A DNA stretch of 64,000 nucleotides from an uncultured Victivallales bacterium (GTDB lineage Bacteria; Verrucomicrobiota; Lentisphaeria; Victivallales; UBA1829): assembly GCA_934644965.1 (NCBI GenBank), contig CAKUDG010000005.1, positions 264 to 64,263 of the forward strand. Reading direction: 5' to 3'. A program made the position numbers and the translations under genes. Each line of letters opens with the position of its first letter. Position 1 is the first letter of the stretch. The notes under the pieces were generated by a model that saw nothing but the letters and a program-made list of their open reading frames with translations, was not told where the DNA came from and did not search any database. Below are positions 1,120 through 60,761 of the stretch, one piece after another.

Positions 1120-1863
1120 ATGACGGAATATGTCTTGAACTTCTCAGATTCGGAACGCTTCCCTTATGGAATTCGCCGTTCCGACCGGGCATCCAGAATG
1201 ACAATCCGCATTCTGCCCGGTCCGAGGATCGAAGTCGTCCTTCCCCGCTTCGTTGCGGAGGAAGAGGCGCACCGATTCATCCGGAAGGAATCCGCATGGG
1301 TCAGAACAACTTTCCGGAAAATGGAGAAAAAAGAGAAATCTCCTTCCCGCAGAAAACAGCAGCCAGGACATCCCGATGAGCTCCATTTCCTGCTCACTGG
1401 AAAGCGATATCGGATTCATTATCTCTGGCGGGACGTGCCGTGGACCGGGGCAAGAATCCGCGATCCGGAAAATATCGACGTCACGGGAAACATTCTGCCT
1501 CCGGAAAACTGCCGTGCCGCCCTCACGGACCTGATCCGGAGAACTGCCGAAACACTCCTCCCACCCATGCTCTCCGAACTGGCCGCGCAGCATGGATTCA
1601 CTTATTCCTCCGCCACAGTGCGCCTGCAGAAACGGCGCTGGGGGAGCTGCTCTTCCAGAGGAGCCATCTCCTTGAACGCATTCCTGATTTTCTTCCCCCC
1701 GGAACTGGTGGAATATGTGCTTCTCCACGAACTCTGCCATCTCCGGAAAATGAATCATTCTTCCGAATTCTGGCAGGAACTCGAACGGATCTGCCCGGAT
1801 GCGCTGAAACGGAGGAAAAGCCTGAACTTCCACAGCCGTCTCCTGCCCTGGGATCCCAGATGA
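1120..1863 (+). CDS. YgjP/DUF45-type zinc metallohydrolase (M48-like)
   Basis: HExxH within LLHELCHLRKMNHSSEFW near the C-terminus, as in the DUF45 family. The ORF opens at TTG 1075; the first ATG is at 1120 (MTEYVLNF). Confidence 0.8.
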   Translation: MTEYVLNFSDSERFPYGIRRSDRASRMTIRILPGPRIEVVLPRFVAEEEAHRFIRKESAWVRTTFRKMEKKEKSPSRRKQQPGHPDELHFLLTGKRYRIHYLWRDVPWTGARIRDPENIDVTGNILPPENCRAALTDLIRRTAETLLPPMLSELAAQHGFTYSSATVRLQKRRWGSCSSRGAISLNAFLIFFPPELVEYVLLHELCHLRKMNHSSEFWQELERICPDALKRRKSLNFHSRLLPWDPR

Positions 1864-1928
1864 CACAATCCCGCTGCTTCAAGGGGAAAAGAGGAAAACA
1901 GGGAAAGGGAAAAGGGATGAAGGGAAAC

Positions 1929-2702
1929 TCAGTACTGATATTTGAACATGTTGGAAGGGACGTTACCGGTCATATAGTTCCGATAGGCTTCAATGGAGGA
2001 CATGTTTTCAACGTGGCCGTCAAAGAAGAGAAGATTCACCGTAAGGTTGTGTCTTCCGTTCACCCAGTCGATCATGGCTTTTTCCCCGGTGAAAGACCTG
2101 GCCGACGACACTCTCCCGGAACCCGAGGGCTCCGGCGCGTTTGCCGTTGACTCATACAAAAGCACCTTCCGTCCCGGATTTTTCACGGCTGCCAGTGGAA
2201 TCGCCCTATTATCCGGAGAACTGATCCCGATATAGCCTATCAGCTGATAAAAATAGCTGTTGTCATCCCCCAAAGCTCCATCCCCATTCTCCCATGATCC
2301 TGACGGACACAGGAAAATGGTCGGAGCGCGGCGGTCAGAGGAAAAGGATGACCTGTACAAAGCCGATCCCCGTTTGTAATCATACCCGGACGCCCCGTAA
2401 GCGCGGTTTTTCCATCCCATGGAATTCCCCAGCAAAGCATACCAGAACCAGTTGGTCTGCCAGTGGTAGGACAATCCGTCCGGAACCAGACAATGGGGCG
2501 CGAATACACTTCCGCAGCCGTCGACATAATACATCTGAAAAATTCCGATCTGTCTTTCCTGCGAAATGCACGCCGCCTTCCGCGCCATTTCCCTGGCCTT
2601 GTTCAGCGAGGGCAGAAGCAGAGACGCAAGAATCGCGATGATCGCAATCACCACCAGAAGTTCTATCAAAGTAAAACTCCGTTTCAAAAATTTCCCTTTC
2701 AT
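1929..2702 (-). CDS. pseudopilin-like protein, prepilin-type N-terminal cleavage/methylation domain + H-X9-DG motif (paralog A)
   Basis: N-terminus [33 protein letters not shown] (TIGR02532-type motif). C-terminal [15 protein letters not shown] matches H-X9-DG (TIGR04294-type). Confidence 0.9.
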
Positions 2703-2869
2703 AACCAGATCCTTTTCCTGTTCTTTGAAAAAATACGATTTGATCTTTACGTTTGATCTCTCTTGTTCCTGTTTTTTCGTCCTGTACCCAGCCCCGGGGA
2801 ATCTCGCTTGTCAAACAAAGCCGGGACTGGATCAAAGCCATCTCAGGAAAAACGAATGAAAAGGGATAT

Positions 2870-2891
2870 GAGGAAAGCGCTCTGTTTCCTC
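2870..2891 (-). terminator. candidate hairpin terminator after paralog B
   Basis: On the minus strand, GAGGAAA-cagagcgc-TTTCCTC (7 bp stem) lies 41 nt after the paralog B stop. It is followed by the U-rich ATATCCCTTTTCATTCGTTTTT. Confidence 0.35.
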
Positions 2892-2931
2892 CCGGCGGCA
2901 GACCGCCCTGCCCATTTCTGCTTCAGTATCG

Positions 2932-3684
2932 TCATTTCAGATTGAACATAGCGGATTCACCATTCTTCGATTTCTGATATTCCAGAATCAGAGTGTCAAT
3001 CGCATACGTTGTAACATGACCGTCCAGGAACAAGGCGTTGTCAGTCCGGTTGTGCCGCCCGAAATAAAAGTCGTTGTAATTCCGCGAATCGTCAAGAAAA
3101 TTTGCCGTGCCGGCGTAAGGGGTGCTTCCGGCTCCGGCAAGCTGCCAGTTGCTGTTTCCCGTATATTCCGTCAGAAGAATTTTTTCTGAAAGCCGTTTTA
3201 ATTCATGAACTTTAGTATATTTTGAAATCGGAGACCCATATCCGTTTGCCTGATAAAAATAATGCTCAGAATAATTAAAGTCTCCTTTCCTATTGGTATC
3301 TATCACACCTGAGGGACACATGAAGATGGGTTTTGTCCCCAGCGGCGGCATGCTCCGGGGGATGTAAAGAGAGTAGTCGGGATCCCTTGTGCTCTGCCGG
3401 AGAACATATCCTTCATTTCTCCCCAGCAGAGAATACCATGTATGAGGAATAGTTAATCCATCACGAGTCATCCACTGGAAATTCGGGGGAATGTAGGAGA
3501 ATGCGTTCTGATAATTGTCATAAAAGAGATGGAGCTGTTTCAGCCTGGAAATGCAGATCGCCCGTTCTCCGGCAATCTTCGCCTTCTGAAGCGAGGGCAG
3601 AAGCAGAGACGCAAGAATCGCGATGATCGCTATCACCACCAGAAGTTCTATCAGGGTAAAACTCCGTTTCCAGTTTCCCTTCAT
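2932..3684 (-). CDS. pseudopilin-like protein, prepilin-type N-terminus + H-X9-DG (paralog B)
   Basis: [32 protein letters not shown] at the N-terminus; [15 protein letters not shown] near the C-terminus. The start context TATATTTTCAAAGGAAA..AGGAT resembles that of paralog A. Confidence 0.9.
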
Positions 3685-4024
3685 TTTCTGAATCCTCTTT
3701 ATTTCCTTTGAAAATATAGTTTATTCCTGTGATCTCATTTCTGTTCTTCTCCGGAGTCGCTCCCCTGAGGAATCCCGACAGTATCCTTTCTGATCAACGG
3801 AAGATCAGAAGGGGGAAGAAAATTCCCGCAAGAGCCACATCTCCTGCTCTCCGAAGAGAACAAGAACAGGGCAGCAAAAACAAATTCATGGCATCGGATG
3901 AACCTGCAACGGCAAAATTCCCGTTTCGTCCAGTACTCTATAACTTTGCATCGAAAAATCCTGTTTGTCAAACAAAGCCGAGGCAGAACCAACGTCTTCT
4001 CAGAAAAAACAAACCGAAAAGACA

Positions 4025-4075
4025 TCAAAAAACAACAAACAAAGTAAAATTCCGTTTCAAAAACTTTCCTTTCCA
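4025..4075 (-). pseudogene. decayed 5' relic of a pseudopilin paralog (first ~12 codons only)
   Basis: Minus strand TGGAAAGGAAAGTTTTTGAAACGGAATTTTACTTTG matches the first 36 nt of paralog A (ATGAAAGGGAAATTTTTGAAACGGAGTTTTACTTTG) at 31/36. ATG is replaced by TGG. The frame reads WKGKFLKRNFTLFVVF-stop. Confidence 0.5.
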
Positions 4076-4295
4076 AGCTTTTTTCTCATCAGAAATGTTT
4101 GACTGAAACTTTTCCTGAGAATTCAATGCTCCGAAGGAATGTACAAAACTCTCCATATTCGTCCCCCTCATTCCCGGAAGTTCTTTCCAGAGAAGAGAGC
4201 CGTGCGGGAATGAGGGGAAAGACAAAATCCATGCATCATTCAGGAAGGAAGAATGTCCATCAGGACAACCTTCCCCCCCCCCGAGAAGAAAAAAA

Positions 4296-5444
4296 CTAGT
4301 CTTCATCCTGTCCTGCAATCACCTTGGAAAGATGCGTCACATACTGCTCATAAAGACTCCGGTAATAGCCGCTTCGTATTTTGTCCCTGGCCATTTCCAT
4401 TGCGGAAAGAGCCTCCGGGTATTTCCCGGCGCCGAAATACGCCTTCGCAAGAAGAAAATACTGGAAATGGTTGACGGCGTTGGCAGGAAGCTTTTCCTGA
4501 TTCAGTGCCTTGGATATGAGTTCGGATGCCGCGGCATAGTCGCCCCTCTTCATGGCGACTTCACCTCGGAGGCATTCCACGGGAACCGTGTTTGCGGGAA
4601 CCATTTTGATTTTCTCAAACTCCTTCATGGTTTCCTCCGCGCCGTCAAGATCCCCCGTCAGAACCTGGGTTTCCGCCAGATTGAGGATATTCCGGTAGGA
4701 GGACTGGCATTCAAGAGCCTTCCGGTAGGCTTCCACCGCTTTCTTCTGGAAAACGGGAGTCAGGTGTTCCTCATAATAGTTCACGCGCTGAAGAAAAGTC
4801 CTTGCAAGCAGGGCATAATAGCTGCTCCGGACCTGCGGGGGAATGCTTTCATCATCCGGATTCAGACTTTCCAGAAAGGAAAGCCGTTCCGGTACAGGAA
4901 AAGCATTCGCACGGATCAGATTCGCCTGCAGAAGTTCCTTCGCCCCCATTCTGGGATCGGCAACGGCCAGATCCCAGATCTGGTACTGCGTAACCCCTTT
5001 TTCGCGATGGCGCCGGAGCAGATCCGCTTTTCTTCCATAAATCAAATAACACTGTTCCGGAGTGACTTCTTTCCGGGCAAGAAGCTGATCCAGAAAGGCG
5101 TTCCCTTCCGCAAAGGTTTTGAAATACAGAGCCTTCTCAAGGGAAAGACGGAACTCCTGATCCCAGTCTGTCCGGGCGGCCTCCATTGCGGAATCCAGAA
5201 TGCGCAGAGCTGCGTCGGAATCCGAATTCTTCCGGAATGCATCACGGGCCTCCGTCATCGCTCTTCCCACGATTTCACGGGGGACAGGAGCCTTTGTTTT
5301 TTTCTGTTGCACAGGCGGCTTCGGAGCCGGCGGTTTGGCCGCTTCCGGTTTTGCTTCCGGCTTCGCCTGCGGCGCTTCAGCTGCAGAGAGAAGCAGAGGG
5401 GAAAGACAGAGAGAAGATATCAGAAAAAGAATCACTCTTTTCAT
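4296..5444 (-). CDS. secreted TPR-like repeat protein with Pro/Ala/Lys-rich linker
   Basis: Signal peptide MKRVILFLISSLCLSPLLLSAAEA, then an (PEAK)-like linker and helical repeats (e.g. GDYAAASELISKALN, AYFGAGKYPEALSAMEMA). ATG 5444 has AAAGGAG 10 nt upstream; the ORF opens at GTG 5465. Confidence 0.8.
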   Translation of the reverse strand: MKRVILFLISSLCLSPLLLSAAEAPQAKPEAKPEAAKPPAPKPPVQQKKTKAPVPREIVGRAMTEARDAFRKNSDSDAALRILDSAMEAARTDWDQEFRLSLEKALYFKTFAEGNAFLDQLLARKEVTPEQCYLIYGRKADLLRRHREKGVTQYQIWDLAVADPRMGAKELLQANLIRANAFPVPERLSFLESLNPDDESIPPQVRSSYYALLARTFLQRVNYYEEHLTPVFQKKAVEAYRKALECQSSYRNILNLAETQVLTGDLDGAEETMKEFEKIKMVPANTVPVECLRGEVAMKRGDYAAASELISKALNQEKLPANAVNHFQYFLLAKAYFGAGKYPEALSAMEMARDKIRSGYYRSLYEQYVTHLSKVIAGQDED

Positions 5445-5451
5445 CGGGCAA

Positions 5452-6546
5452 TCACTCCTTTTCACTCATCCATTTTTGTTTCAGATACTTGGCAAACGCC
5501 TCCTCCAGATCGTACTGGAACTGGATCAGCGCGGCGGATGCCTTCTTGTAGAAGCGGTCCTGTTCTTCGGGAGAGAGAGTATCCATTGCGGCAATCTGTG
5601 CGCCGAGTGCATCGCGCTCCGCCGCCATGGGCTTCATCCATTCTTCCGCGAAATCGCGGTACTCCGCAAAATTGTTGTAGGAACGCTCCGACTTCGGCAG
5701 AGCGGCGCGGTAGGGTTCCTTGAGATCGGGGGTTTTGGCGGGATCCACGCGCCGGAAGGCCGCCTTGTAGTCGTTCCACGCATGGTAAAGGACATTTTTG
5801 CGGATCGCGAGCTTCTGTTCCGGGGTGAAATCCGGCCACTGGATGTAGCCCGCGCGGCTGAGTTCATGCACGACTCCGCCCCAGGTCTGGCCGCCGCCGG
5901 GACTGAAACGGATCACGGACAAACGCCAGTAATTGTTCCGCTTCCCGTCGTCCAGGGGCAGCATGTTCCAGGCAAAGGTCCAGGGCACAAAGATACGCAG
6001 CATCACCCCGTTGGAAACGATTTTCGATTCCAGGCGGAGATATGATTCCAGAGATTCAAAATTCCGGTCGTTCACCAGCCAGGGGAAGAAGCGGACTTCC
6101 GGTTTGATCGGATCACTGATGATGAACTGGTTGTAATGGACGATCTCTTCATTGTCGCAGTCTCCGGGCGCGAAAAAGAGTTCCAGCGTGCAGGAGGGGA
6201 AGGCTTTTCCCTCGGCCAGATATTTTTTCATGTCCGGTTCGCCGGCAAAGATCAGGAGAGTGAATCCCTCGCTGTCGCAGAACATGCTGATCGCGGTCGG
6301 GCGCTGGCCCTCAATGGTTTTTCCCGCGGAGACGTCCCGCTGGTAGGCGGGGTCCGTAAAGAGCATCGCCGCGCTCTCCTTGCTGTATGGACGGAAATTG
6401 AAGTTCCATTTCACCGAAGGATCGGAAAGCAGCCGTTCAAAATCCCCGCCGACGCTCCGGTACGATACTGGCAGGAAATTCTTCCCGGCGGCATGCCCCG
6501 CCGCGGACAGACACAGAACGGCAAAAAGTATCAAAACGGATTTCAT
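5452..6546 (-). CDS. secreted protein of unknown function (possible CBM9/DOMON-like sugar-binding fold)
   Basis: Signal peptide MKSVLILFAVLCLSAAGHAAG. The segment TLELFFAPGD...VHYNQFIISD resembles CBM9-like domains, by recollection only. Its ATG overlaps the upstream stop (ATGA at 6543-6546). Confidence 0.75.
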   Translation of the reverse strand: MKSVLILFAVLCLSAAGHAAGKNFLPVSYRSVGGDFERLLSDPSVKWNFNFRPYSKESAAMLFTDPAYQRDVSAGKTIEGQRPTAISMFCDSEGFTLLIFAGEPDMKKYLAEGKAFPSCTLELFFAPGDCDNEEIVHYNQFIISDPIKPEVRFFPWLVNDRNFESLESYLRLESKIVSNGVMLRIFVPWTFAWNMLPLDDGKRNNYWRLSVIRFSPGGGQTWGGVVHELSRAGYIQWPDFTPEQKLAIRKNVLYHAWNDYKAAFRRVDPAKTPDLKEPYRAALPKSERSYNNFAEYRDFAEEWMKPMAAERDALGAQIAAMDTLSPEEQDRFYKKASAALIQFQYDLEEAFAKYLKQKWMSEKE

Positions 6547-9188
6547 GGCAGTTTCACTCCGTGTTTTTTGTAAAGGTCAAGCAGAATGCAGATGCGGTGT
6601 GCGGCGGAAAGACGGACATAGTCCAGATCCCCGCGGTCCGGCGAAATCCGGGAGAACCAGATCAGCTGCCGGCGGCCCTCGCGGACCAGTTCCTCCACAC
6701 CGCTCTCGCGCGCCTTTTCCGCAAGAATCTTCCCGAGACTCACATAACGAATGTCGTCAAAGGCTTCGCGAAGTCCTTCGAGGGCGATGGTGTTGATCAC
6801 GCCGTCGGAGGTGGGATAGGTCATGGCAAAATTCCGGTAGTTGCCGTCGCGGTCGTCAAAGAATTCGTTGAAGCGTCTGCGGGCGGCGAAACCGTGAATC
6901 ATGCTTCCATCGTAATTGTTCATGTACATCCACATGCCCACCCGGCGGCGGAAGATCAGCGGATTCTCGGCTCCCGGGAACGGACGGGCGTAGTTCATGA
7001 TGAGCGCTCCGCCCGCATGCCAGTGCTCCGCCTCGTCTTTTTCCACAGCGGTGCGGACAATCATGTCCTGAATGTCTCCGACGAAATCCAGATTGTTGAT
7101 CCCCATACCCGTCACACGGATCTTCCCGCCATGACGTTTCACCACAGTCCAGGTCGGTTCCTGCAGGTAATACAAGGAATTGTAGGAGGATGCCTCATCG
7201 ATTCCGTACATGTACACATCCCGGTGTCCATAGGCTTTTTCATGTCTCGCAAGAAATTCCTCCACTTCCTCTCCATAGTCGGACATTTCCTTTTCAAAGA
7301 CTTCCGTGGTCCGTTCCTCCGGTTTCGTCCGGTTCCAGCTCTGGCTTGTGGAACTTCCCGCAAAAATGGGGCGCAGCGGCATGCCCAGGGATTTCCGGAC
7401 GCGGACTTCTTTTTCAAACATCTCCTTGTTCGGCATGAAGGCTCCTGTCGGATAGAGCATGTTGTGCTCCTTCATGATCTTGAATTCCGCACGAAGCCGG
7501 TCTTCAGAAGTTTTCTGATTCTGAATCGCCATCCCATGGGAAAAGTTTCCGAAGAAGCGGCGGGAGGTGTCATAACTGGTCCGCGCTTCCGGAAGCTGGA
7601 AAGGAAAAACACGCACGGAAAGAGCAAGAGTGCCGACGCTTTTTCCATCCGCAGTCATGGATAGCGTTCCGCGATAAAGTCCGCCGGGGGTGTTCTCCGG
7701 CACGTGCAGCGTCAGCCAGTACTGCTGATTCTTCCCCGCCTCCGGCAGAGTGAGCGGAAGAAGCTGCGGAGCATCGCGGAAGGGAAGAAGATCCGGATCA
7801 AATGAGGAAATCGAAGTCGATTCGCGGCGGCTGGCATCGAAATAGACGGACCCTTCAGGATAATCCAGGCGGATCTCGTTGGTCCGGCGGATTTCATCGA
7901 CTCTGACGAGCGAATCATCGTTCAGCAGCAGGTCAGGCGTCAAGAAACGTCCGCGGCGGTCGGCATGATAGTTCAGCCATGCTCCGCCCGCGCGGTACCA
8001 GCGCTTCACCAGTTTGAGATCCAGAGCCGATGCGGGGATTTCCGCGCCTCCGGGCCCCTTCAGCGCGGAAGCCGTCACATGAAACTTTTCCAGCGCCTGG
8101 AACGGAATCACCAGAAACGAGGCGGATTCATATTCGCCCTGCGCCGCAAAGATTTCCAGCACTCCGCTCAGAGTCCCGTCTGCGGGGAGCTTCCAGGGAG
8201 TCCGGATTTCCTGGCTGATCGGGGGAACCGTATACACCGCCACAGGACCGGAGCAGGAGGCCTTGTTCGATGCATTCGGCATCTCGGCAGCCATCCGCTG
8301 CGCATTGCGGATTTTCTGTTCCAGCGCGTTCCACTGCCCTTCCGTCACGTCTTTGCGCCCGGAATACGATTCCAGGCGTTTCCCGAGTTCGTTCAGATAT
8401 TTCGTGAATGAGGGATTCGCCGTATATTTCCCCGCCTCGGAAAGAAGGTTCTTCAACACTTCCTTCTCCGCAGGGGCTTTCTGCTGCGGAGTCAGCCAGG
8501 AGGAATCCAGAGAGGCCTCGTAGAGACGGTATGCCGCCAGCGCGCCGTTGAAACGCGGAGTGAAGCGGACAGGGGAGGAAACCTTCGGCAGAAGAATGGT
8601 GGCATTGTCATTCTCATACTGCCAGACTCCATCCACATAGAAGGAAAGCCTCTGCTTGTTCATGGAGTAATTCCACGCGATATGATACCATTTGCCTTTC
8701 TCGAAACGGTCTTTGCTGCGCATGGTGATGTAAGGCCCGCGGAGATCGTCCTTCCCGCCGTAGAATCTCAGAACGATGTGCCCGTCCTTCTCCAGCACGC
8801 AGTCCAGCACGCCCATGGAGACGGATTCGGGAGTCTTTGACGCTTCTCCGAATTCATCGAAACGAATCCGGAAACTCCCGGAAGACTCGCTCATGTCCGG
8901 CACTTTTCCCCCTTCCGCGGCGGAAAGGAAGGGCTCCTCTCCTTTCTGAAAGACAATCCCCGGAATCCCGTCCGGTCCGGCCTGAGCTTTGACATTCTTC
9001 CCCGGCTGCAGAAGGATGCTTTTCTCCGATCCCTTCACGGAGGGAAGAAGTGCACCTTTTTCCTGGAAATCACAGGAAATCACCGCCTGAGGCTCGAGAG
9101 CCACCGAGGAAACGCTTCCCGACAACAGCAGAAGCGTCGTCAGGAAACAGGCGAAACGCTGTTTCATCTTTTTTTTCCTTTCCATCAT
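6543..9188 (-). CDS. secreted LamG/concanavalin-like domain protein with large glycosidase-like (GH123/DUF4091-like) C-terminal region
   Basis: Signal peptide MMERKKKMKQRFACFLTTLLLLSGSVSSVA. LamG-like GKWYHIAWNYSMNKQRLSFYVDGV. Central LEIFAAQGEYESASFLVIP...KLVKRWY pattern is typical of DUF4091/GH123-like proteins. Start could be 9212, 9188 or 9167. Confidence 0.8.
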   Translation of the reverse strand: MMERKKKMKQRFACFLTTLLLLSGSVSSVALEPQAVISCDFQEKGALLPSVKGSEKSILLQPGKNVKAQAGPDGIPGIVFQKGEEPFLSAAEGGKVPDMSESSGSFRIRFDEFGEASKTPESVSMGVLDCVLEKDGHIVLRFYGGKDDLRGPYITMRSKDRFEKGKWYHIAWNYSMNKQRLSFYVDGVWQYENDNATILLPKVSSPVRFTPRFNGALAAYRLYEASLDSSWLTPQQKAPAEKEVLKNLLSEAGKYTANPSFTKYLNELGKRLESYSGRKDVTEGQWNALEQKIRNAQRMAAEMPNASNKASCSGPVAVYTVPPISQEIRTPWKLPADGTLSGVLEIFAAQGEYESASFLVIPFQALEKFHVTASALKGPGGAEIPASALDLKLVKRWYRAGGAWLNYHADRRGRFLTPDLLLNDDSLVRVDEIRRTNEIRLDYPEGSVYFDASRRESTSISSFDPDLLPFRDAPQLLPLTLPEAGKNQQYWLTLHVPENTPGGLYRGTLSMTADGKSVGTLALSVRVFPFQLPEARTSYDTSRRFFGNFSHGMAIQNQKTSEDRLRAEFKIMKEHNMLYPTGAFMPNKEMFEKEVRVRKSLGMPLRPIFAGSSTSQSWNRTKPEERTTEVFEKEMSDYGEEVEEFLARHEKAYGHRDVYMYGIDEASSYNSLYYLQEPTWTVVKRHGGKIRVTGMGINNLDFVGDIQDMIVRTAVEKDEAEHWHAGGALIMNYARPFPGAENPLIFRRRVGMWMYMNNYDGSMIHGFAARRRFNEFFDDRDGNYRNFAMTYPTSDGVINTIALEGLREAFDDIRYVSLGKILAEKARESGVEELVREGRRQLIWFSRISPDRGDLDYVRLSAAHRICILLDLYKKHGVKLP

Positions 9189-9277
9189 TATATTTTCTGC
9201 TTTCCCTTCCATACTCCATATACTTCAACAGACAGAAAGGCGACGGGGACAACGGACGCCTTCCTTCTCTGCTTCCG

Positions 9278-10147
9278 TCAATCAAATTTCAACGGCCGGA
9301 ACATCGTGCCGATGCTTATGCCGGAATCTCCCTGGGCGGAATACGCCTCGTTCGCCAGCTGAGTCCTCGGAACGAATCCAGCATGACCGTCCAGAAACAA
9401 AACGTTGCAGCTTCCCATGTGCCTGCCTTCCACCAGATCCCTCAAACGGTCCTGATCATCCACTGTCCCCAAGGTCCGGTACCCTTTTGAAATCGCCTCC
9501 CACGCCGCGCCCGGAATATAATAGAGCCAGGTGGAAACGATGTGCCTTTTTCCCGAAAGAAGATTGTAATACACGTAATAATTGTTCCCGTGATCCAGAA
9601 CATGCGCCTTCGCGGACGGGTTCTTCGCAGCAGACAGTCTCCAGGGCGCACTCCCTTTCTGCAGAGTCGGCACATTGCCGGCCCCCAGCCCCTGATTGAC
9701 ATCATACATGGCATACGAGGCGGAGGAAGGCGGCAGACCGATCGTCCTGTTCCCCCCGCTCCCGCTGTAATCCAGAACCGCACGCGGACAGAGAAAAATT
9801 TTCACCACTGCCGGAATTCTGGTGGCGGGCAGACGGTCCAGATCCGTCTGTTCATACGGATGCCCCGCCTCCTCCAGCAGCAGACGGTACCAGCGCACAT
9901 CCCAGCTGTACGGGCCGCTCACATCGTTCCCGCAAATGATGTAAGACGGCGTCACAAATCCGTACGACGAAATATACGACTGTTCCAGCATGCCGATGTT
10001 TTTCAAATTTCCCATACAGAAAATCTTCTGGCTCGCATCCTTCGCCGATTTCAGCGCTGGCATGAGTAACGCCGCAAGGATAGCGATGATCGCAATCACC
10101 ACCAGAAGCTCGATCAGCGTGAAACTCCAGGCATTTCGGACATTCAC
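9278..10147 (-). CDS. pseudopilin-like protein, prepilin-type N-terminus + H-X9-DG (paralog C)
   Basis: A GTG at 10147 gives [32 protein letters not shown], a leader length matching paralogs A and [16 protein letters not shown] near the C-terminus. The ORF is open to ATG 10324, but that stretch is a structured leader. Confidence 0.8.
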
Positions 10148-10279
10148 TCTTCTGCTTTCTCCACACGGCAGGAGGATACTTCCGGCAGGGAGGAAAGGCC
10201 CTCTTTCCTTCCGCCAGCTCTGCCGGAAAAATGCCGACAGGGGGGAGAAAAAGAAATATTCCTTCCAGATCCTGCACAT

Positions 10280-10303
10280 TCTTCCGGAAAGATCTTCCGG
10301 AAA
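10280..10303. promoter_or_regulatory. two tandem TCTTCCGGAAA boxes (each containing the palindrome TTCCGGAA), 13-nt period
   Basis: Plus strand TCTTCCGGAAA-GA-TCTTCCGGAAA, 133-156 nt upstream of the paralog C start. Confidence 0.3.
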
Positions 10304-10468
10304 TGGAAAATTCAAGTTCTGCATGATGCCTCAAATCCATTTCATTCTTTACTTTTTATTCTACATTCCTAAGTTTTTGATTCGTCGTATCTTTCCGTTG
10401 CATGGCAATACTGAAGATACATCATAAAATAAGGCTGCTGTCAAAAAAGCAAAGCGGAAGGGAAAAGC

Positions 10469-11473
10469 TCAGCCCGCCGCTCTTCTCTCCACATTGTTTT
10501 CTGTCCGGGAAGAGGAGGGTCCATTCTGCCGGCAGGAAAGCGGAATCACACTCATGGCCCGGTAATCCGCCCCGGATTCCAGACGAAGAAGCAGATCCGC
10601 CGCGCACTGCCAGAAATCTTTTTCAAAATCCGGTGAAAACGCCGCAATATGCGGAGTGAAAATCACGTTCTCCATGGCAAAGAGCGCATTGGAAACCGAA
10701 GGAGGTTCGGGATCGGTCACATCGAGGGCGGCTCCGGCAAGATGTCCGCTTCCAAGAGCCTCCAGAAGCGCAGACTCGTCCACAACTCCGCCCCGGGAGG
10801 TGTTGACCAGAAGCGCCCCGGGCTTCATCAAGGCGAATCGCTCCTCATTCATCAGATGTCTTGTGGATTCCGTCAGCGGACAATGGAGCGAGACAATGTC
10901 CGATTCCTGCAGAAGGCGCTCCAGCTCCATCGAATCGGGAACAAACGGGTCGAAATGGAGGATGTTCATGCGGAATCCGGAAAGCATCCGTTCCACATGG
11001 CGCGCAATTCTGCCGTAGCCGACGAGTCCGAGCGTCCTCCCGCGGACCTGACCGAGTTCCGGGCGGTTCCCCGAGTCCCAGACTCCGGACCGGACTTCCC
11101 TGTCCAGCATCGGAATCCTTCTCAGAAGCGAAAAGATCAAGGCCACCGCGTGTTCCGCCACCGCTTCCGCAATGGATTCGGGGGTATTGAGCACGGCGAT
11201 TCCGAGTTCACCGGCTCTTTTCAGCGGCAGGGCGTCGACACCGCTTCCGTTGCGGAGAAGCACGCGGCAGTTCGGGAGGCGGTCCAGAACACCCTCCGTC
11301 AGCGCGGGATTTGCCCCGAACATCCAGAGAATGTCCGCATCCGAAGCAAATTCCGCCAGTTCGTCGGACGTTTCACACTTCCGACAGATCAGCTCCATGC
11401 CCGCGTTCCGCAGCTGAGGAGGAATTTCCGGAGGAAGCTGGTTTTCCTCCGCGGAAATCATCGCACATTTCAT
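10469..11473 (-). CDS. D-isomer-specific 2-hydroxyacid dehydrogenase (CtBP/PGDH-like)
   Basis: NAD-binding GLVGYGRIARHVERML. Catalytic region NTSRGGVVDESALLEALGSGHLAGAALDVTDPEP and FTPHIAAFS. Its ATG overlaps the upstream stop (ATGA at 11470-11473). Confidence 0.9.
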   Translation of the reverse strand: MKCAMISAEENQLPPEIPPQLRNAGMELICRKCETSDELAEFASDADILWMFGANPALTEGVLDRLPNCRVLLRNGSGVDALPLKRAGELGIAVLNTPESIAEAVAEHAVALIFSLLRRIPMLDREVRSGVWDSGNRPELGQVRGRTLGLVGYGRIARHVERMLSGFRMNILHFDPFVPDSMELERLLQESDIVSLHCPLTESTRHLMNEERFALMKPGALLVNTSRGGVVDESALLEALGSGHLAGAALDVTDPEPPSVSNALFAMENVIFTPHIAAFSPDFEKDFWQCAADLLLRLESGADYRAMSVIPLSCRQNGPSSSRTENNVERRAAG

Positions 11474-12231
11474 TGACGCACCTCTTTCAGAAGATTCTGG
11501 TAGAATGCGTACTGACTTACACAGTCACCCGTCAGAGCAATCCAGTTGACTCCGCGCACCTTCCAGGCGGGGAAATTCCCCGCGGCGGTCCCCAGCATCA
11601 CACCCGCGGCCTTGGTTTTCCGGCAGATTTCGTCTATGACGCGGTTCAGTTCCGGATCGTCCATGCGGTTCAGGATCCCCATCGATCCGGAAAGGTCGCA
11701 GGGCCCCACGCAGATGCTGCCGATCCCGGGAACACGCAGAATCTCATCCAGATGGGGAAGAGCATCGATGTGCTCGATCTGGATAATCACCATCGGTTCT
11801 TCATCGGACTGTTTCAAGTAGTCGAAGAAATTCGTCTTTCCGTAACGGACTCCTCTCCGGACGCCGCATCCCCGTCTCCCGCGCAGCGGATAGCGGCATG
11901 CGGCAACCGCGGCCTCCGCCTCTTCCGCAGTGCAGACCATTGGAACAATCACCGCCGCAGGAGCCATGTCCAGAATCGGCTTGATCACCCAGTGTTCATT
12001 CCAGGGAACACGGACAAACGGCGCGCAGGACGTCCCACGGAGCGCCATGATATGCCCCAGGACGCTTTCTATGTTTAAAGGAGCATGTTCCATATCGATC
12101 CAGGTAAAATCCATCCCCGCGTCCGCAGCCAGTTCGCTGACAGCCGGATCACTCAGTGAAATGGAGGTGCCGATGGCTATTCTATTTTGGGCAATGCACT
12201 GTCTGAAGCGTTCAAGATTGTTAATTTCCAT
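11470..12231 (-). CDS. HpcH/HpaI-family 2-keto-3-deoxy-sugar-acid aldolase
   Basis: GTSISLSDPAVSELAADAGMDFTWIDMEHAPLN and RVPWNEHWVIKPILDMAPAAVIVPMV are family-typical. ATG 12231 is preceded by GGAGGAATT. The ORF extends to 12312 without support. Confidence 0.85.
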   Translation of the reverse strand: MEINNLERFRQCIAQNRIAIGTSISLSDPAVSELAADAGMDFTWIDMEHAPLNIESVLGHIMALRGTSCAPFVRVPWNEHWVIKPILDMAPAAVIVPMVCTAEEAEAAVAACRYPLRGRRGCGVRRGVRYGKTNFFDYLKQSDEEPMVIIQIEHIDALPHLDEILRVPGIGSICVGPCDLSGSMGILNRMDDPELNRVIDEICRKTKAAGVMLGTAAGNFPAWKVRGVNWIALTGDCVSQYAFYQNLLKEVRQ

Positions 12232-13003
12232 AATTCCTCCAATTCTCCACGGATAATCCGTGTTTCTTGTTTTGTTCAAAAAGCCATTGCGCGCATTCGC
12301 GCAGATTCCCATAAATAAGATCTTCTACCCCTTCGGAAAGACGAAAGAGCGGAACCGTCAGCCCCAGACTTCCCGCCGTCCTCCCGGAAAGATCGCTGAA
12401 CGGAACCGCATAGGATTTGATTTCCTCGTCCTCGTTCACCATCAGAGAAAGTTTTTTCTTCCGGATTTCCTCCAGTTCGCGTTTCAGGGCTTCCCGGCTG
12501 GCGCACCCTTCCTCCCACTGCATCGCGGAAGGAAGACCCCCGGAATCAATCAGGGCATCCAGTTCCATCGGAGTCAGCCCGGACAAAATCACTCGACCAG
12601 ATACACTGTGATACAGCGACAGACTGCTGTATACAGAAATATTCAGCACCAAACTCCGGGGAAACTGCGCCTGCGAAATAATCCTGACATTCTCATCCTG
12701 AAACACCGCTATCACAGCCGATTCCCTCGTCGCATTCGCAAGACGAACGCACGCCTCCATCGAAAGACGCTCCACCAGAGGATCCAGATGACTCCCATTC
12801 CCCAGATTCCTGAATTTCTCCGAAAGCATGTAGCCGCCGGATCCGTCATTCAGAACATACCCCAGCGAACACATTTCCTTCAGAATGTTGCAAAGCGTCG
12901 GCTTCGCAATCCCCGTCCGGGCACTCAGCGACTTCAATGTGATCTTCCTGTTGTAGCGAAGATATTCAACAATATTGAATACCTTCGGTATAATCTTGAT
13001 CAT
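12221..13003 (-). CDS. IclR-family transcriptional regulator
   Basis: N-terminal wHTH VFNIVEYLRYNRKITLKSLSARTGIAKPTLCNILKEMCSLGYV plus a C-terminal IclR-type effector domain. It overlaps the aldolase start by 11 nt. Confidence 0.9.
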   Translation of the reverse strand: MIKIIPKVFNIVEYLRYNRKITLKSLSARTGIAKPTLCNILKEMCSLGYVLNDGSGGYMLSEKFRNLGNGSHLDPLVERLSMEACVRLANATRESAVIAVFQDENVRIISQAQFPRSLVLNISVYSSLSLYHSVSGRVILSGLTPMELDALIDSGGLPSAMQWEEGCASREALKRELEEIRKKKLSLMVNEDEEIKSYAVPFSDLSGRTAGSLGLTVPLFRLSEGVEDLIYGNLRECAQWLFEQNKKHGLSVENWRNYGN

Positions 13004-13045
13004 CCCGGACGCTCCTGCATCTTCCTCGGTAAATCTTTTCCTTTC

Positions 13046-13073
13046 ATTATAGATAATTTTTCTGCCAAGTCAA
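13046..13073 (-). promoter_or_regulatory. sigma70-type promoter of the iclR-aldolase-dehydrogenase operon
   Basis: Minus strand TTGACT (13073-13068) - 16 nt - TATAAT (13051-13046), 43 nt upstream of the iclR ATG. Confidence 0.6.
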
Positions 13074-13111
13074 TTCTTTTCCCTTCTTTTTTCCTCTTTT
13101 TCAAGAAATCA

Positions 13112-13126
13112 TTTTACATTGTAAAA
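13112..13126. promoter_or_regulatory. 15-bp perfect palindrome TTTTACA-T-TGTAAAA (operator candidate)
   Basis: Read directly from the sequence. It lies 39 nt upstream of the -35 box and is followed by CAAAAA, as is the second copy. Confidence 0.4.
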
Positions 13127-13326
13127 CAAAAAAAACAAAAAAAACATCTCTACCTGATTTTTCCCATGAAAAAGCAGAAAAAACGGTCTCGGCTTCTGCG
13201 AAGGAAACAAAAAACCTTGCAAATCCATAAGTTCAGACATCCTGAGATTATGAAAAGGGCATGCCGGGAAAAACGGAAAAGCACCCCGGGAAGGAAAAGA
13301 GGGGGCTCATGAAATTTCACTCCATG

Positions 13327-13341
13327 TTTTATAATGTAAAA
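13327..13341. promoter_or_regulatory. second copy of the palindrome (TTTTATA-A-TGTAAAA, one mismatch)
   Basis: Shares A(T/A)TGTAAAACAAAAA with the copy at 13112, 215 nt away. Confidence 0.35.
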
Positions 13342-13724
13342 CAAAAATCCTCGGAAAGACAGAAACGGCCCCCCCTGCGCTCAGTCAGCAGCAAGGATCT
13401 GCAAGGGCGGAGCAAAAACTCCGCTTCCCGCGGGAGAACACGCAATCTCCGAGCCAGGAAAAGACGCTGAATCCCCCAGAACAGCAGGACTCTGTGGATC
13501 ATCAGGGGGATCAGAATCCAGGAAAGCGGATAGGAGAGTAGAAGATTCTCCATCGCCCTGTATGCGGAAAGATGGCGAGGACCCGCAAAACTCGGAAGGC
13601 ACAGGGAAAAATCATCGTGACAAACGGCGAAAGGAAGAAATCCCCCCAGTTCTCCCACTCCTCCATTGCCAATCTCCGTGAAAGCGCAGAGGATATACAT
13701 CGTGAAGAAGCAGAAGGGAAAAGC

Positions 13725-21829: not shown

Positions 21830-24800
21830 TCATCCCGGAGCGGAAGAAGAAGATTTTTTCCCCGGAAGCAGAACCTCTCGGATCATTTTTTCAAGAGACG
21901 CCGCTGTGATCGGCTTGAGAAGGATGGAGTCAAAGACTTTTTCCTGCGCGGAAAGGGCTTCGGCGTCCGCAGTGACGGCGATGACGGGAAGAGCGATGCC
22001 GGGATCGGAAAGGATCTGCCCGGCCAATTCGGCTCCGCTCATGCCCGGCATCCAGATATCTGTCAGAACCGCGTCAAAGCGGAGCTGCCTTTCTTTCAGA
22101 AGACGCAGCGCCTCAGGGCCGGAATACGCCAGGGTACACTCCACGTTCAGTCTGTTCAGAATAGCCTGAAGGAGTTTCAGATTCATCGGGACGTCGTCGA
22201 CCAAAAGCATGCGGATCGGGGCGCGGGCGCTGTCTCCGGACGCGGTCTTTCCGGGAGGATTCTCCCGGTTCCGGAGCGCTCCTTCCCGCACGGGTCCCCC
22301 GCCCGGAGTTTTTCCCTCTTTCTTTTTCTCCTTTTCCTCCGGAAGGAATTTCACCGGGTCGGTTCCTTCCGCAAGCTGCCGCTCCTCCGGCGGAGAGTCA
22401 TTGCCGGAATCATATGCCACATCCTCCAGGACAACGGTGAAGACACTGCCTTCCCCTGGTGTGCTCTCCAGATGGATCGTCCCCCCCATCCGGTCGACCA
22501 GTCTGCGGCAGATGGCAAGCCCCAGGCCGGATCCTTCATAAATATGATTCCCGCGCGCCGAATTCTCCTCTCGGACAAAGGGGTCAAAAATCTTCCGGAC
22601 ATATTCGGGGGAAATCCCTATCCCCGTGTCGCTCACCTGAATCGAAAGAATCCCCGACGCATGTCCGGGACGCGGACAGAAAAAGACCGAGAGACTCACC
22701 TCTCCGAACGGCGTGAACTTCACCGCGTTCCCCAGAAGATTGAACACCACCTGACGCAGACGGAGATGATCCACATACAACGGCCTCTCCAGACCCGACA
22801 CATGACTGCGGACCGTCAGATTCTTTTCCTTCGCCTTCAGTTTGAACACGGAGACGGCCTCCTTCACAAGCTCCGTCATGTCCGTCCTGACAGGCAGCAT
22901 GTTCAGCTGCCCCGCCTCCAGGCTCGAAAGATCCAGAACCCCGTTCACCAGATTCAAAAGCGCATTCCCCGCCATATGGATCGAACGCAGATACTCCTCC
23001 TGCTCTTCACGGTCGACCACACCGCTCTGGAGAAGTTCGCTGAAGCCGATCACGGCGTTCAGGGGCGTGCGCAGTTCGTGACTGACCGTCGCGATGAAAT
23101 AGCTTTTTGCCCGGTCCGCCGCCTGCGCCAGTTCCATGGCTTTTTGAAGTTCCTGCTTCTGGCGCGTAATCTCCGTGATGTCCACATCTGACACCAGGAC
23201 CGAACTGATCCTTCCCTGACGGTCCAGCAGAGGCTGGGCCGTCGAAAGAAAACGTCTTCCTTTGAAAAATTCATGCTCGGCGCTCTGCATTCTGCCCGTT
23301 TTCAGAGCCAGGCGCATCGGACACCAGTCCGGTGGCTCCGGAGCCCGGCAGAACACGCTGTAGCATTTCTCTCCGCGGATTTCATCCAGATTGCGTCCAG
23401 TTTCCTTCAGTGCGCTGGGATTCGCCGCAATGATCCCGTAGTTCGGGTCCAGAATCGTAATCGGTATGGAAATGCTGTTCACAATCTGGCGCTGGAGTGC
23501 AACGCTGTCCTCAATCCGCGCAATCTGGCGCTGACGCTCACGGGCAAGAAGAAACAGATTGGAAATGCTGTGCAGCATCAGCACATCGCAATCGGAAAAT
23601 TCCCGCCCCGCATGGACAAACTCCATTCCCACAACCCCCTGGACATCCCCTTGCGCAGGAAAACCGCTCAGCAGCAGAGAACGGATCCCACGCTTCCGGA
23701 GAGACTCCGCCACAGCTTCCAGGCCCTTTGGAACTGCATCCATGTCCGAAAGAATCAGATATTTGCGCGTTCGGAGAACGTGTTCCCATTCCGCCGGGAA
23801 AGTGCTGCGGTGCAGAAGGAAAGGGCTCCCACCGGAACCCGTGTCCGGAGGAGATGATGATGAAGAAGGAGAAGACGCCTCTTTCTTCTTCGCCTCCTCC
23901 CTGAGCCCGGTCCTGCCGTTTTCCGCTTCCACCTTCTCCGGAACACCGGGGGAGTGCTGCTGCGGCGGGGACTGCGGGAATGGCTGCTCCTGAGAAATCT
24001 GCTGCGACGGAGAAGAAGCGGCGGCGGAATCCCGCACCCATTCGTATTCGCAATCGACGGGATTGCTGTTTTCGTCCCGGAGACGGACAAGATAACAGCG
24101 GTCGGCACCGGCATTTTCGCCGATGATCCGGAGCATGTCGTTCACAGCGCGGTTGAAATCGTTTTCCAGAGTGATGCGTGTCAGGGACTCGTTGAAGATG
24201 CGTTCGCTTCTGGAAAAATCGTTCAGGCGGCGGATCGTCTGTTTCTGCTGTTCTTCCAGAGCGTACTGGTCGGAAATGTCGATGCCCATCCCGATCAGGA
24301 GACGGGTGCCGTTAGACTGGCGGATGACGTTCTTGATCGTGCGGACAACCAGTTTCTGATTGTTTTCGTTGGTCAGGAATTCACGCATGTCCATGCTGCC
24401 GCCGGATTCCAGGAGCTTGAGGTCGTCGCGGCGGAATTTTTCGGCGGCTTCGTCGTCGAGCGTGAAGATGTCGCGGTCGAAACGGCCGATGACCCGTTCG
24501 GACTTGACGCCTGTCAGATTTTCAAAGCCGTGATTGCACATGACATAGCGGAAATCGTCGTCGGCATTTTTCACAAAGAGATAGCCCGGGAGATTGTTCA
24601 TGATGCTGCCGAGAAGATTGAGATTGTCACGGTATCGGATTTCATTTTCCCGGGCGCGGGTGATATCCTGAATGACGCCGCAGAATTCCCTGCCTTCGCC
24701 GGAATGATCGTCGCTGCGTTCCATTCGTATTTCATAGTAGCGTTTTCCGGATGGGGTGTTGACGGAAAACAGAACGTTCAGTTCACTGGTCTTTCCGCTC

Positions 24801-26908
24801 CGGATTCCGGACCACTCGCTCTGAAAACGCGGCAGGTCCTCGGGCGCAATCCATTCTTCAGGAGGAAGGGGGTGGCCGTCCTTCTCGGGCCAGAACGCCC
24901 CCATGTTCTCGGAAGACATCGTAAACGGGCCGTCCTCCCGGAACGAAAAACAGACAATCTGCGCAAGTTTTTCCATGTTTTTCAGAATGATGCTGTTTTT
25001 CCGCAGCTGATCGCGCTTTTCATATTCCTCTGTCACATCGCGGAACACGAGCACTCCACCAGCGATTCCCCCGTCTGCAGGACGGATCGGAGCGGCGCTC
25101 GCCGCGATATGGCGGTGCGTCCCATCCGCCGAGATCAGGATCAGATGCTCCGCAAGTTCCACGGTTTTCCCGCTGGAAAGGGCTTCCCTCAACGGGGAAT
25201 CCACCTCATTTTCCCGTCTCTCCGCGGCCGGACCGCCGGAAGCGGAATAATGGCGGACCAGATGAAACACATCCTTCAGGATCCGTCCTTCCGCCTTCTC
25301 TCTCGGAATCCCCATGAAACGGCAGGCCACGGGATTGACCAGGGTGATTCTTTCGGAGGCATCCGTGGCGATCACGCCGTCCCCGATGGATTCGAGCGTC
25401 AGGCGGAAACGTTCCGCGATTTCAGCCGCCTCGGCATGCGCCTGGCGCAGTTCCGTCACATCCGTGGAATACCACATTGCGGCATTCGCGCCGAACTGGC
25501 TGCCCGCAGGAAGACGCAGAAATCCCGCATGACGGAAGCGCCCTGAAAACTCATAATCAAGCTCCTGATCCTCCCCTGTGGCAAACACGCGGGAAAGAGC
25601 CTCCGGGAACAGTTTCCGGAGCTCCGGAGGCAGACCGTCAATATGCGAAAGTTTCCGGTAAACCGAGGCCGTATCTTCCTGCGCATGGGAAAAAAGCACC
25701 CGCCCGGAGGAATCCGCCACCCCGATCCCGAGCGGCAGATGCTCGAAGATCAGACGGATCCTCCTTTCGGTCTTTTCCCGGTACAGAAGGGTTCCGATCA
25801 CAAAAAAACAGAAACAGAGCACAAATACCGCCAGATACGTCAGCTCCTCCATATTCCGCGCGATGAAACCGGCGGGCACGCTCCGGAATTTTACAGTCCG
25901 CCCCCGCAGGATCGGGAGCTCCTTCACCCGGGCGGGGGAATACCCGCATTTCCTCAGCGCGGAATAATCGAATTCCGCCAGACTTTCCGCCTTGACCACG
26001 GGAATCTCCCGCGCCTTTTCCCCCTGCAGAATCCGGAGTCCCATTTCCCCGCCAATACGGCCCTGGACTCTGCCGGAAGCCACAATTCCTCCGGTCGCCC
26101 CCAGCGTGTTGTAACAGCGATATTTCCCGAGAATCAGTCCCTGGAAACGTTCCGCAATCCGGGGGAGCACCGTATAGCTGTTTTCCGGGTCTTCCTCGCG
26201 GGAAGAGCTCCAGGAATGATACAGAAGAAATGTGTCTTCTGGGGAAAAACTGTTCAGTCTCTCCAGCATTTCCTGCGTGGTGTATTCCGATCCGCTCAGG
26301 AAAAACAGTTCACGGCCGTGCATGATCCGGGCAAAAATCTCCTGAAGGATGCTTTGTTGTTTCCTTCCGTCGGCGGAGGCGCCCGTAATGAAGACAATCC
26401 GCCTGCCGGAAGGCTGAAGCTCCATGCCGAGCAGAGCGTTTTCCGGTATGTTCAGCGGCGTTTCCACCCCCGTCATATTCAGTTCCGCGGGAATCCTCTC
26501 CCGGAGATTCCCCTGATAGGCAAGTGAAAGAATCGGGGTGCCGGTCCGGGGAACCAGGCGCCCGTTCAGAAACAGATCCGTCGCATCATTGTTGGAGACC
26601 ACTATCAGATCATAAACCTTGGAGGAAAGCTTCGCCTGAAGCCCGATCACATCCGCCTCGTCCGGACGGATCCCCGGCTGATATCTCACCCCCAGCTCAT
26701 AATTCTCGTAATTGAGCGGAAGATGCTGCCTGTTCAGATAATTCTGAAAAGCCCGCTTCAGATTGCCGGACCACAAATCCGATTCCCCGTACGAATCAAT
26801 CATCAGAATCCGTTTGACACGGTGTGCAGGCACGCCCGCTTTCCCTGGAAAAAACGAAAACAGACACAGCAGAATGAAACAAATCTGAAACACCCGAAGT
26901 CTTCTCAT
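21830..26908 (-). CDS. hybrid sensor histidine kinase/response regulator (periplasmic SBP-like domain, TM, PAS/GAF modules, HisKA, HATPase, REC)
   Basis: [18 protein letters not shown] (H-box), [34 protein letters not shown] (G2), [15 protein letters not shown]...[12 protein letters not shown] (REC). N-terminal signal/TM then [22 protein letters not shown]. Start is ATG 26908 ([14 protein letters not shown]). Confidence 0.9.
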   Translation of the reverse strand: [1692 protein letters not shown]

Positions 26909-27210
26909 GGCCTCATCACCCCGAAGGACTCGCCTTCCCTTCCCCTTCTTCTCCCTGTCTTTCTTTTCCCTTCTTCTCCTCATCCTCCGGACAGGAGGAC
27001 AGGATGAGATGGGATCAAAACAAAAAACGGTTTTTCACACATTCCCGCTCTTTTCCCTCACCATTGTTCTGTCAGGATCTGCAGATGAAAAACATCTTTC
27101 CCTTTCAGCTTGCAAGCCCTCTCCGGTCCTCTCCTTTTTTCACGAAGACGGGAAACGGAGCGGGAAGAAAAGAAAGCGGAAAGAGAGAGAGAAACGGGAT
27201 GATGGAAAAA

Positions 27211-54380: not shown

Positions 54381-55373
<993 letters not shown>

Positions 55374-55505: not shown

Positions 55506-55579
55506 TACCCCGTTGTGTAATGGTAGCACAAGTGGTTTTGGTCCACTCAGTCCAGGTTCGAATCCCGGCGGGGTAGCCA
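55506..55579 (+). tRNA. tRNA-Gln (anticodon UUG)
   Basis: 74-nt cloverleaf: acceptor TACCCCG/CGGGGTA, D stem GTGT/GCAC, anticodon stem AGTGG/CCACT with loop TTTTGGT, T arm CCAGG-TTCGAAT-CCCGG (one A-C mismatch), encoded CCA. U1-A72 plus G73 are bacterial tRNA-Gln identity features. Confidence 0.9.
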
Positions 55580-60734: not shown

Positions 60735-60761
60735 CAATCCCCCTGCTGAGGCTTGATTAAA

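Follow-up and report, generated by a model that had tools for sequence, protein, structure and literature searches.

Which members of a gene island belong together functionally, when genes for secreted, apparently glycan-active proteins are flanked by members of a large pseudopilin-like family? The question is raised by a 64,000-nucleotide (nt) stretch of DNA from an uncultured Victivallales bacterium of the gut (contig CAKUDG010000005.1; the whole stretch is called the window below), which shares 98% identity with a contig in the metagenome-assembled genome (MAG) of an uncultured member of the Lentisphaeria. Its minus strand carries seven elements in a row: a gene for a pseudopilin-like protein with an H-X9-DG motif (paralog C), three genes for secreted proteins (A1, with LamG and GH123-like regions; A2, with a CBM9-like region; A3, with tetratricopeptide repeats, TPR), the relic of a pseudopilin gene start, and two more H-X9-DG genes (paralogs B and A). 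The initial annotation suggested the pseudopilin-like proteins as functional partners of secreted glycan-acting machinery. The answer favored here, with some reservation, is that the functional unit is the trio and not the seven-element island: A1, A2 and A3 would form an exported glycan-degrading complex, with the pseudopilins as facultative neighbors.

The main evidence is the recurrence of the trio in distant lineages. A scan for relatives of A1, with one genome per species, yields 80 loci; they belong to Lentisphaerota, Kiritimatiellia, Verrucomicrobiota, Planctomycetota, Omnitrophota, Armatimonadota and the Paenibacillus/Cohnella group. Linkage between A1 and A2 was counted at the level of open reading frames (ORFs) with profiles of both families, over 93 A1-type ORFs in the 79 other loci. 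A2 lies immediately 3′ of A1 in 60 cases and in the same ORF in 6 more; the resulting 66/93 cases span Lentisphaerota, Kiritimatiellia, Verrucomicrobiota, Planctomycetota, Omnitrophota and Paenibacillus/Cohnella. The A2 family itself is small, with 419 cluster representatives among 1.84 billion proteins in an exhaustive profile search. Among the best 150 representatives, 81 have A2 at the C-terminus of a longer protein, whereas A1-A2 fusions account for only 2, so the possibility that long A2 proteins are mostly such fusions is rejected. Instead, at least 11 of the 60 scanned A2 representatives with non-A1 extensions contain an N-terminal Pfam TPR. Eight of ten genes that follow A1 in loci of Omnitrophota and of the Planctomycetota-Verrucomicrobiota-Chlamydiota (PVC) group combine N-terminal TPR signals with the A2 module, five of them with at least one TPR family above the Pfam cutoff. 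As a separate observation, the A2 module in the collected homologues (proteins P0051-P0221) is mostly the C-terminal domain of TPR proteins encoded directly after a GH123-like gene.

The modules are thus distributed over genes in several ways. In most PVC relatives the gene after A1 encodes a TPR-A2 fusion, in some genomes A1 and A2 form one protein, in Paenibacillus A1 is followed by A2 joined to Ig-like domains, and in the window LamG-A1, A2 and TPR are three genes. In the LamG-bearing subfamily nearest the window, most loci with available sequence have a third gene closely spaced with or overlapping the end of A2, the product of which is helical, secreted and quick to diverge, measures 380-680 amino acids (aa) and shows weak TPR signals. 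The A2 proteins of Paenibacillus/Cohnella continue with Ig-like, cadherin-like or OmpL47-type domains, and two of the Paenibacillus homologues (L024:11913-13850, L022:11942-13615) illustrate the additions, which also include chitinase-A N-terminal-like domains; these extra domains suggest a cell-surface or substrate-attachment role there. Recurrent neighbors of the A1-A2 pair are glycan-related (DUF4838/GH67N-like, FAD_oxidored, Gfo/Idh/MocA and β-helix proteins), and in Paenibacillus they include sugar ABC permeases and DUF5696. Because the same three modules recur with varied fissions and fusions, the pattern is the signature of proteins that act together physically. Judged by comparison of sequences and gene order, the A1, A2 and A3 modules are one conserved unit across phyla. 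Its components are all of known kinds (GH123-type enzymes, CBM9 folds, TPR proteins), as is the H-X9-DG family; the three-module association and the A2 family are without description in the libraries searched, A2 having no curated model.

A1 was initially described as a secreted LamG and GH123-like protein of 882 aa. The length reflects an internal Met, and the first ATG gives 889 aa; the assignment is borne out by Pfam, structure prediction, Foldseek and a retained DE motif. The protein starts with a probable signal peptide (MKQRFACFLTTLLLLSGSVSSVA), and signal-peptide-like N-termini are seen on A1, A2 and A3 alike in the ORF translations with a home-made heuristic. Pfam recognizes a LamG domain (Laminin_G_3, 5.5e-7). 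The AlphaFold2 model, based on 42 homologues (predicted local distance difference test, pLDDT, 87.6; predicted template modeling score, pTM, 0.89), shows an N-terminal β-sandwich followed by a (β/α)8 TIM-barrel. The same combination is found in the CAZy family GH123 (the β-N-acetylgalactosaminidases NgaP, CpNga123 and BvGH123, and distant Nga groups such as NgaCa), which has been enlarged to take in distant subfamilies (Sumida et al., 2024, PMC11087588). Foldseek matches the model to 22 GH123/Nga chains (E 4e-25 to 2e-16; template modeling score, TM, normalized by the target, up to 0.70), the best being NgaCa of Cohnella abietis (8k2g, 4.1e-25), with BvGH123 and CpNga123 also among them. In GH123 enzymes, an Asp stabilizes the 2-acetamido group and a Glu acts as acid/base in substrate-assisted retaining catalysis (Sumida et al., 2024). 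A1 has a consecutive Asp-Glu pair at the equivalent position (D672-E673), directly after the barrel β-strand formed by residues 666-669. By sequence, the A1 family profile matches NgaCa (E 1.8e-17), the [D/S]E column of the family falling on the NgaCa Asp-Glu, and a C-terminal 'R-x-G-x-x-D-x-x-Y' region aligns as well. In contrast to solved GH123 enzymes, A1 has an additional N-terminal LamG domain and a helical linker, and most of its relatives have a CBM9-like module, usually joined by TPR, as a separate or fused partner.

A2 had been called CBM-like, and the structural comparison agrees, while no Pfam or NCBIfam family, CBM families included, is matched by its sequence at E <= 0.01. The AlphaFold2 model (pLDDT 79) consists of a CBM9-like β-sandwich at about residues 24-236 and a helical C-terminal region of about 120 residues (242-362). 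The sandwich superposes on CBM9 of Thermotoga maritima xylanase 10A (PDB 1i82, Foldseek E 4e-6) and on 7nwo (1e-5), CBM9 matches ranging from 4e-6 to 3e-5. Unlike CBM9, A2 is not an appendage of an enzyme: it occurs as a secreted protein in its own right or fused to TPR, and it carries a helical tail. The fold is also common to haem-binding DOMON-like subunits (7b04, 2ivf), and sugar binding is thus a candidate role that the model suggests. Both proteins, of 882 and 364 aa as initially annotated, match folds of carbohydrate-active type in structure prediction and Foldseek, A2 moderately.

A3 is recognized as a secreted TPR protein by Pfam, in agreement with the initial annotation (TPR_19 32.0, TPR_4 30.3, TPR_1 29.5 and TPR_2 29.6 bits, all above cutoffs). 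A Lys/Pro/Ala-rich N-terminal region precedes the repeats, which occupy about residues 240-375; an alternative GTG start at 5465 would lengthen the protein to 389 aa. A run of ten G (about 4272-4283, minus strand) is located directly 3′ of the A3 stop, inside the 610-nt spacer that follows, and may mark a tract prone to slippage or a position sensitive to assembly. The junctions within the trio can be read directly and are as first described: the A1 stop and the A2 start overlap in ATGA (6543-6546), with GGAG upstream, and 7 nt ('ttgcccg') separate the A2 stop from the A3 ATG, with AAGGAG upstream. That stop and start codons overlap or lie so near each other suggests a coupling of translation, by which the three proteins would be made in fixed proportions.

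In the mechanism proposed here, A1, A2 and A3 would be exported via Sec signal peptides and most likely form a joint glycan-degrading complex. Given the retained Asp-Glu pair, A1 is proposed to cleave β-linked N-acetylhexosamine (HexNAc) by a retaining, substrate-assisted reaction. The LamG domain and, as far as its model indicates, the CBM9-like A2 would supply glycan binding, with A3 as a scaffold; the pseudopilins would be dispensable for the function of the trio.

Several observations weigh against this proposal. A2 is not recognizable beside 26 of the 93 A1 homologues. The distance of A1 from characterized GH123 enzymes is large: identity to solved members is only 12-19%, the match to Glyco_hydro_123_N_2 (PF22680) reaches 23.9 bits and stays below the cutoff of 27, and Pfam DUF4091 (PF13320) is not matched, this domain being carried by only two very distant matches in the A1 homologue search. 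Of the 42 members of the A1 family, 14 have D-E at this position, 27 have S-E, with Ser in place of the stabilizing Asp, and one has a gap; the Glu is invariant. This replacement, a further difference from GH123, puts family-wide substrate-assisted catalysis in doubt. The A1 family as a whole may do without this mechanism and may act on a non-HexNAc substrate, and for two thirds of its members the sequences suggest that mechanism or substrate may differ from those of known GH123 enzymes. The similarity of A2 to CBM9 is moderate (target-normalized TM 0.55-0.58). Finally, signal-peptide calls, here and below, come from a simple home-made heuristic with known false positives.

The locus resembles the polysaccharide utilization loci of Bacteroidota (Sus), in which the gene of a secreted glycosidase is clustered and co-directional with genes of glycan-binding proteins that lack catalytic activity and of regulators or catabolic enzymes. 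The corresponding neighbors in the window are located upstream, where the minus-strand run continues with genes for a 2-hydroxyacid dehydrogenase, an HpcH/HpaI aldolase and an IclR-family regulator; the last (12221-13003) heads the run to which the island belongs. Unlike Sus loci, the island lacks a SusC/SusD pair, with CBM9-like and TPR modules as the binding and scaffold parts and pilin-like proteins as accessory neighbors. A sequence that matches the sigma-70 consensus at 11 of 12 positions (TTGACT, 16 nt, TATAAT) lies just 5′ of the IclR gene (13046-13073, minus strand). Over 1700-13400, a scan for promoters and terminators gives counts not above shuffled sequence (8 vs. 5.4 and 18 vs. 14.9), with a weak hairpin alone after the A3 stop. 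At the other end, paralog A closes the run, because it is followed by a convergent gene for a YgjP-like peptidase (1075-1863).

All seven elements were located where they had been placed initially, by an ORF map and a six-frame motif search, and deviations concern the choice of start codon only (Table 1).

Table 1. Positions of the island elements, the fourth H-X9-DG gene and selected codons in the window.
Feature	Positions	Strand	Remarks
Paralog C	9278-10147	-	GTG probable start at 10147; ORF reaches ATG 10324
A1, 889-aa ORF	6543-9212	-	secreted LamG + GH123-like; from first ATG
D672-E673 codons of A1	7194-7199	-	align with GH123/Nga catalytic DE motif
A2, 364-aa ORF	5452-6546	-	secreted; CBM9-like + helical C-terminal region
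A3, TPR protein	4296-5444	-	382 aa from ATG
Pseudopilin gene-start relic	4025-4075	-	resembles first codons of paralog A
Paralog B, 250 aa	2932-3684	-	prepilin N-terminus + H-x9-DG
Paralog A, 257 aa	1929-2702	-	prepilin N-terminus + H-x9-DG
Paralog D, fourth H-X9-DG gene	54540-55373 (ORF from ATG 54381)	+	
Codons of the -1 residue	2675-2677, 3660-3662, 10123-10125	-	
Codon of the -1 residue	54561-54563	+	

The H-X9-DG proteins are recognizable as pilin-like mainly by their N-termini. A regular-expression search finds the H-x9-DG motif and a prepilin segment with FTLIELL in all four paralogs of the window. TIGR02532 (cutoff 16.3) is matched by A, B and C with 23.2, 23.2 and 21.1 bits, and D matches N_methyl with 29.8 bits; for TIGR04294, A and C reach 16.8 bits, just under the cutoff of 19. 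As in GspG and PilA, the hydrophobic N-terminus is of the prepilin type and includes Glu5, and the α1 helix is complete. When a profile of ten family members is compared with the PDB, only the first ~65 residues, the α1 helix, match type IV pilins or GspG (PilA 1.3e-15, GspG 2.3e-7), and for the globular part this search retrieves no solved relative. This sets the proteins apart from the pseudopilins of type II secretion systems (T2SS) and from type IV pilins, and so does the cleavage site. Prepilin peptidases strongly prefer Gly at position -1; the residue is Ser in A, B and C and Ala in D, and among 71 full-length family members it is Gly in 30, Ala in 21, Ser in 7 and another residue in 13. 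Processing of many copies by prepilin peptidase is therefore questionable, which also counts against a filament-type role. In contrast to gsp and pil clusters, H-X9-DG genes are scattered beside unrelated operons, and none of the annotated genes of the 64-kb window encodes a T2SS or pilus assembly protein (GspD/E/F, PilD). The C-terminal H-x9-DG motif and the many dispersed paralogs are those of the H-X9-DG/DUF1559 family of Planctomycetota, Lentisphaerota and Verrucomicrobiota. The initial annotation had described this family as massively expanded and as not known to have an experimentally defined role. The literature agrees on both counts: planctomycete genomes have 68-100 paralogs each, two family genes are essential in Planctopirus limnophila, and a search for work on H-X9-DG, DUF1559 or pseudopilins in Lentisphaerae, Victivallis or Kiritimatiellota returned no functional study.

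Part of the island appears to stem from local events within this family. Paralogs A and B share 39% identity (A and C, 28%) and are, by their sequences, tandem duplicates. The relic, reported initially as a pseudopilin gene start, does match the first ~38 nt of paralog A: it reproduces the first codons (GAAAGGAAAGTTTTTGAAACGGAATTTTACTTTG) and then decays, its translation ending in WKGKFLKRNFTLFVVF before the frame stops after 16 codons. A 16-nt sequence (CGGCTTTGTTTGACAA) has two exact copies in the window and no others, at 2808-2823 (minus strand), upstream of paralog A, and at 3965-3980 (minus strand), upstream of paralog B and just after the relic; 0.04 matches are expected by chance. It is probably left over from the local duplication and may be a scar of that event or a regulatory site common to both genes. 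Paralogs A, B and the relic accordingly look like products of local duplication and decay, as far as sequence similarity tells. With four paralogs in 64 kb and A and B as tandem duplicates, three copies in 8 kb are unremarkable for this genome.

What, then, is the relationship of the flanking paralogs to the trio? Paralog C ends 65 nt from the A1 ORF on the same strand, and this arrangement recurs. In the 79 loci of other species, 6 of the 20 nearby H-X9-DG genes are within 350 nt of an A1 homologue on the same strand (L043, L046, L072, L076, L079, L081), where uniform placement expects 0.59, an approximately tenfold excess (simulation P about 2e-5); the arrangement is repeated, with 442 nt between ORFs, at L015, which is a paralogous gene of the species that the window comes from. 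Together with the pilin-type helix and its conserved Glu5, and with the exported proteins encoded downstream of family members (see below), this could indicate that the pseudopilins are dedicated partners of the trio, forming a surface fiber or tether or a T2SS-like piston. Such a partnership is nevertheless unlikely, since adjacency does not follow the trio: about 90% of the A1 loci outside Firmicutes are without it, and only about a dozen of the loci fetched with A1 hold any H-X9-DG gene at all. At the closest non-conspecific relatives of the trio with sequenced flanks (L001, L006-L019 except L015, and L163-L165), no flanking pseudopilin is found. The trio of L163 (49% identity) has upstream a protein with a β-helix-like C-terminus and downstream release factor 2 (PrfB), that of L164 (47%) an unannotated 677-aa protein upstream, that of L165 (38%) upstream ROK and SDR genes, and that of L001 (33%) an upstream LacI regulator. 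Paenibacillus/Cohnella loci contain the enzyme pair with no pseudopilin nearby, these Firmicute homologues doing without the H-X9-DG family. Nor are the adjacent paralogs elsewhere orthologous to C. Its sole close copy, 94% identical and trio-adjacent, is on a MAG contig of the same species (L003), and the others are 28-42% identical to each other, so that an orthologous partner clade is rejected. Paralogs A and B, finally, are separated from the trio by the 610-nt spacer with the decayed copy and are followed by no exported gene, and the lack of assembly genes in the window and of Gly at -1 argues in the same direction.

At the other extreme, the bracket around the trio could be a mere by-product of family abundance and tandem birth and death in this genome, with no functional link. 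The four paralogs make up about 8% of the genes in the window, A and B are duplicates, the stretch that separates them from the trio includes a decayed gene start and a repeated 16-mer, and the neighbors of the closest trio relatives are those just described; all this fits such a by-product, which we nonetheless regard as doubtful because of the positional excess beside A1 homologues in other lineages and of a second, independent bias. In a pseudopilin-centered sample of 52 full-length H-X9-DG members from environmental metagenomes (loci L083-L162), the next gene downstream (+1) is co-directional in 79% and signal-peptide-like in 68%; the share of signal-peptide-like genes is 62% for +1 and +2 combined, compared with 30% for genes at least three positions away (Fisher P 4e-4). 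A similar remark on exported-protein genes downstream of family members was made earlier for Tuwongella immobilis (PMC8567305). The two biases speak for a generally non-random placement of the family. A different function is implied by the Pfam name SBP_bac_10 and by a 2009 paper, both of which treat the DUF1559 domain as a solute-binding family: the H-X9-DG proteins could be periplasmic solute-binding proteins, tethered to the membrane by the helix, that bind oligosaccharides set free by enzymes encoded nearby and so serve their uptake. PF07596, which represents this domain (cutoff 23.3), is matched by B (25.2 bits) and below the cutoff by C (21.6), A and D giving no match, and non-Gly residues at -1 would suit an uncleaved anchor. 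This function is nevertheless improbable: PDB matches are restricted to the N-terminal helix and the globular part has no sequence similarity to a solved binding protein, the near-invariant FTLIELL with Glu5 is a signature of filament-forming pilins, and no ABC transporter genes adjoin the paralogs of the window.

The preferred reading, a self-contained trio with facultative pseudopilins, accommodates the non-random placement as a general property of the family. As judged from gene order, H-X9-DG genes have a tendency to stand first in operons that encode exported proteins, in a manner that is facultative and not CAZyme-specific. A preference for carbohydrate-active enzyme (CAZyme) genes, expected initially, is not supported. 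The 36 downstream neighbors in the environmental sample are heterogeneous, with two sulfatases, two Gfo/Idh/MocA proteins, two CarboxypepD_reg proteins and many unrelated or unannotated genes. Many of the +1 genes encode signal-peptide-like proteins of ~125-260 aa without a Pfam family (e.g., L085:4990-5568, L096:10826-11350, L138:10788-11162, L158:5165-5572; two match CarboxypepD_reg), which may be a recurrent small partner. Paralog C fits the facultative pattern and would head an operon for exported proteins in general. Of the partnership initially suggested, the non-random adjacency thus stands, whereas conservation with the trio and specificity for CAZymes do not, and the functional idea is weakly supported. 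The genes before the fourth paralog, initially described as sugar-active, encode an AraC regulator, a Gfo/Idh/MocA oxidoreductase and a 499-aa protein without a family. The latter (52776-54275, plus strand), between the oxidoreductase gene and paralog D, has no Pfam match and no signal peptide. On the other side, 130 nt 3′ of paralog D, is a tRNA-Gln gene (anticodon TTG, 55506-55579, plus strand), the sole match of Rfam and tRNA scans, which find none in the island. Elsewhere in the window are genes for a hybrid sensor kinase of 1717 aa that combines multiple PAS domains with a receiver domain (21830-26983, minus strand) and for a 1005-aa Ser/Thr protein kinase with leucine-rich repeats (60753-63770, plus strand).

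As to what the pseudopilins might do, we suggest with low confidence that H-X9-DG proteins are inner-membrane-anchored subunits of type-IV-like filaments that would aid export or retention of the products of neighboring genes. A stronger version is speculative and rather unlikely: PVC bacteria would export the proteins encoded directly downstream of H-X9-DG genes by a type-IV-filament route, with the H-X9-DG proteins as its cargo-specific adaptors or tethers. If it were true, paralog C would be the adaptor of an unrecognized heterotrimeric GH123-related complex of A1, A2 and A3, and the paralogs, hundreds in each genome, would constitute a system of 'one adaptor per exported operon'. H-X9-DG/DUF1559 is among the largest function-unknown paralog families in PVC bacteria, and the bias of its genes toward positions upstream of co-directional exported-protein genes narrows the experiments that are worthwhile.

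Neither the A2 partner module nor the A1-A2 pairing is present in Pfam or NCBIfam. The hosts of the A1 family, gut Lentisphaeria/Victivallales, Kiritimatiellia, Verrucomicrobiota, Planctomycetota and soil Paenibacillus, are glycan degraders with many unassigned genes. An anonymous gene trio becomes a defined, testable enzyme system built around a distant GH123-type family.

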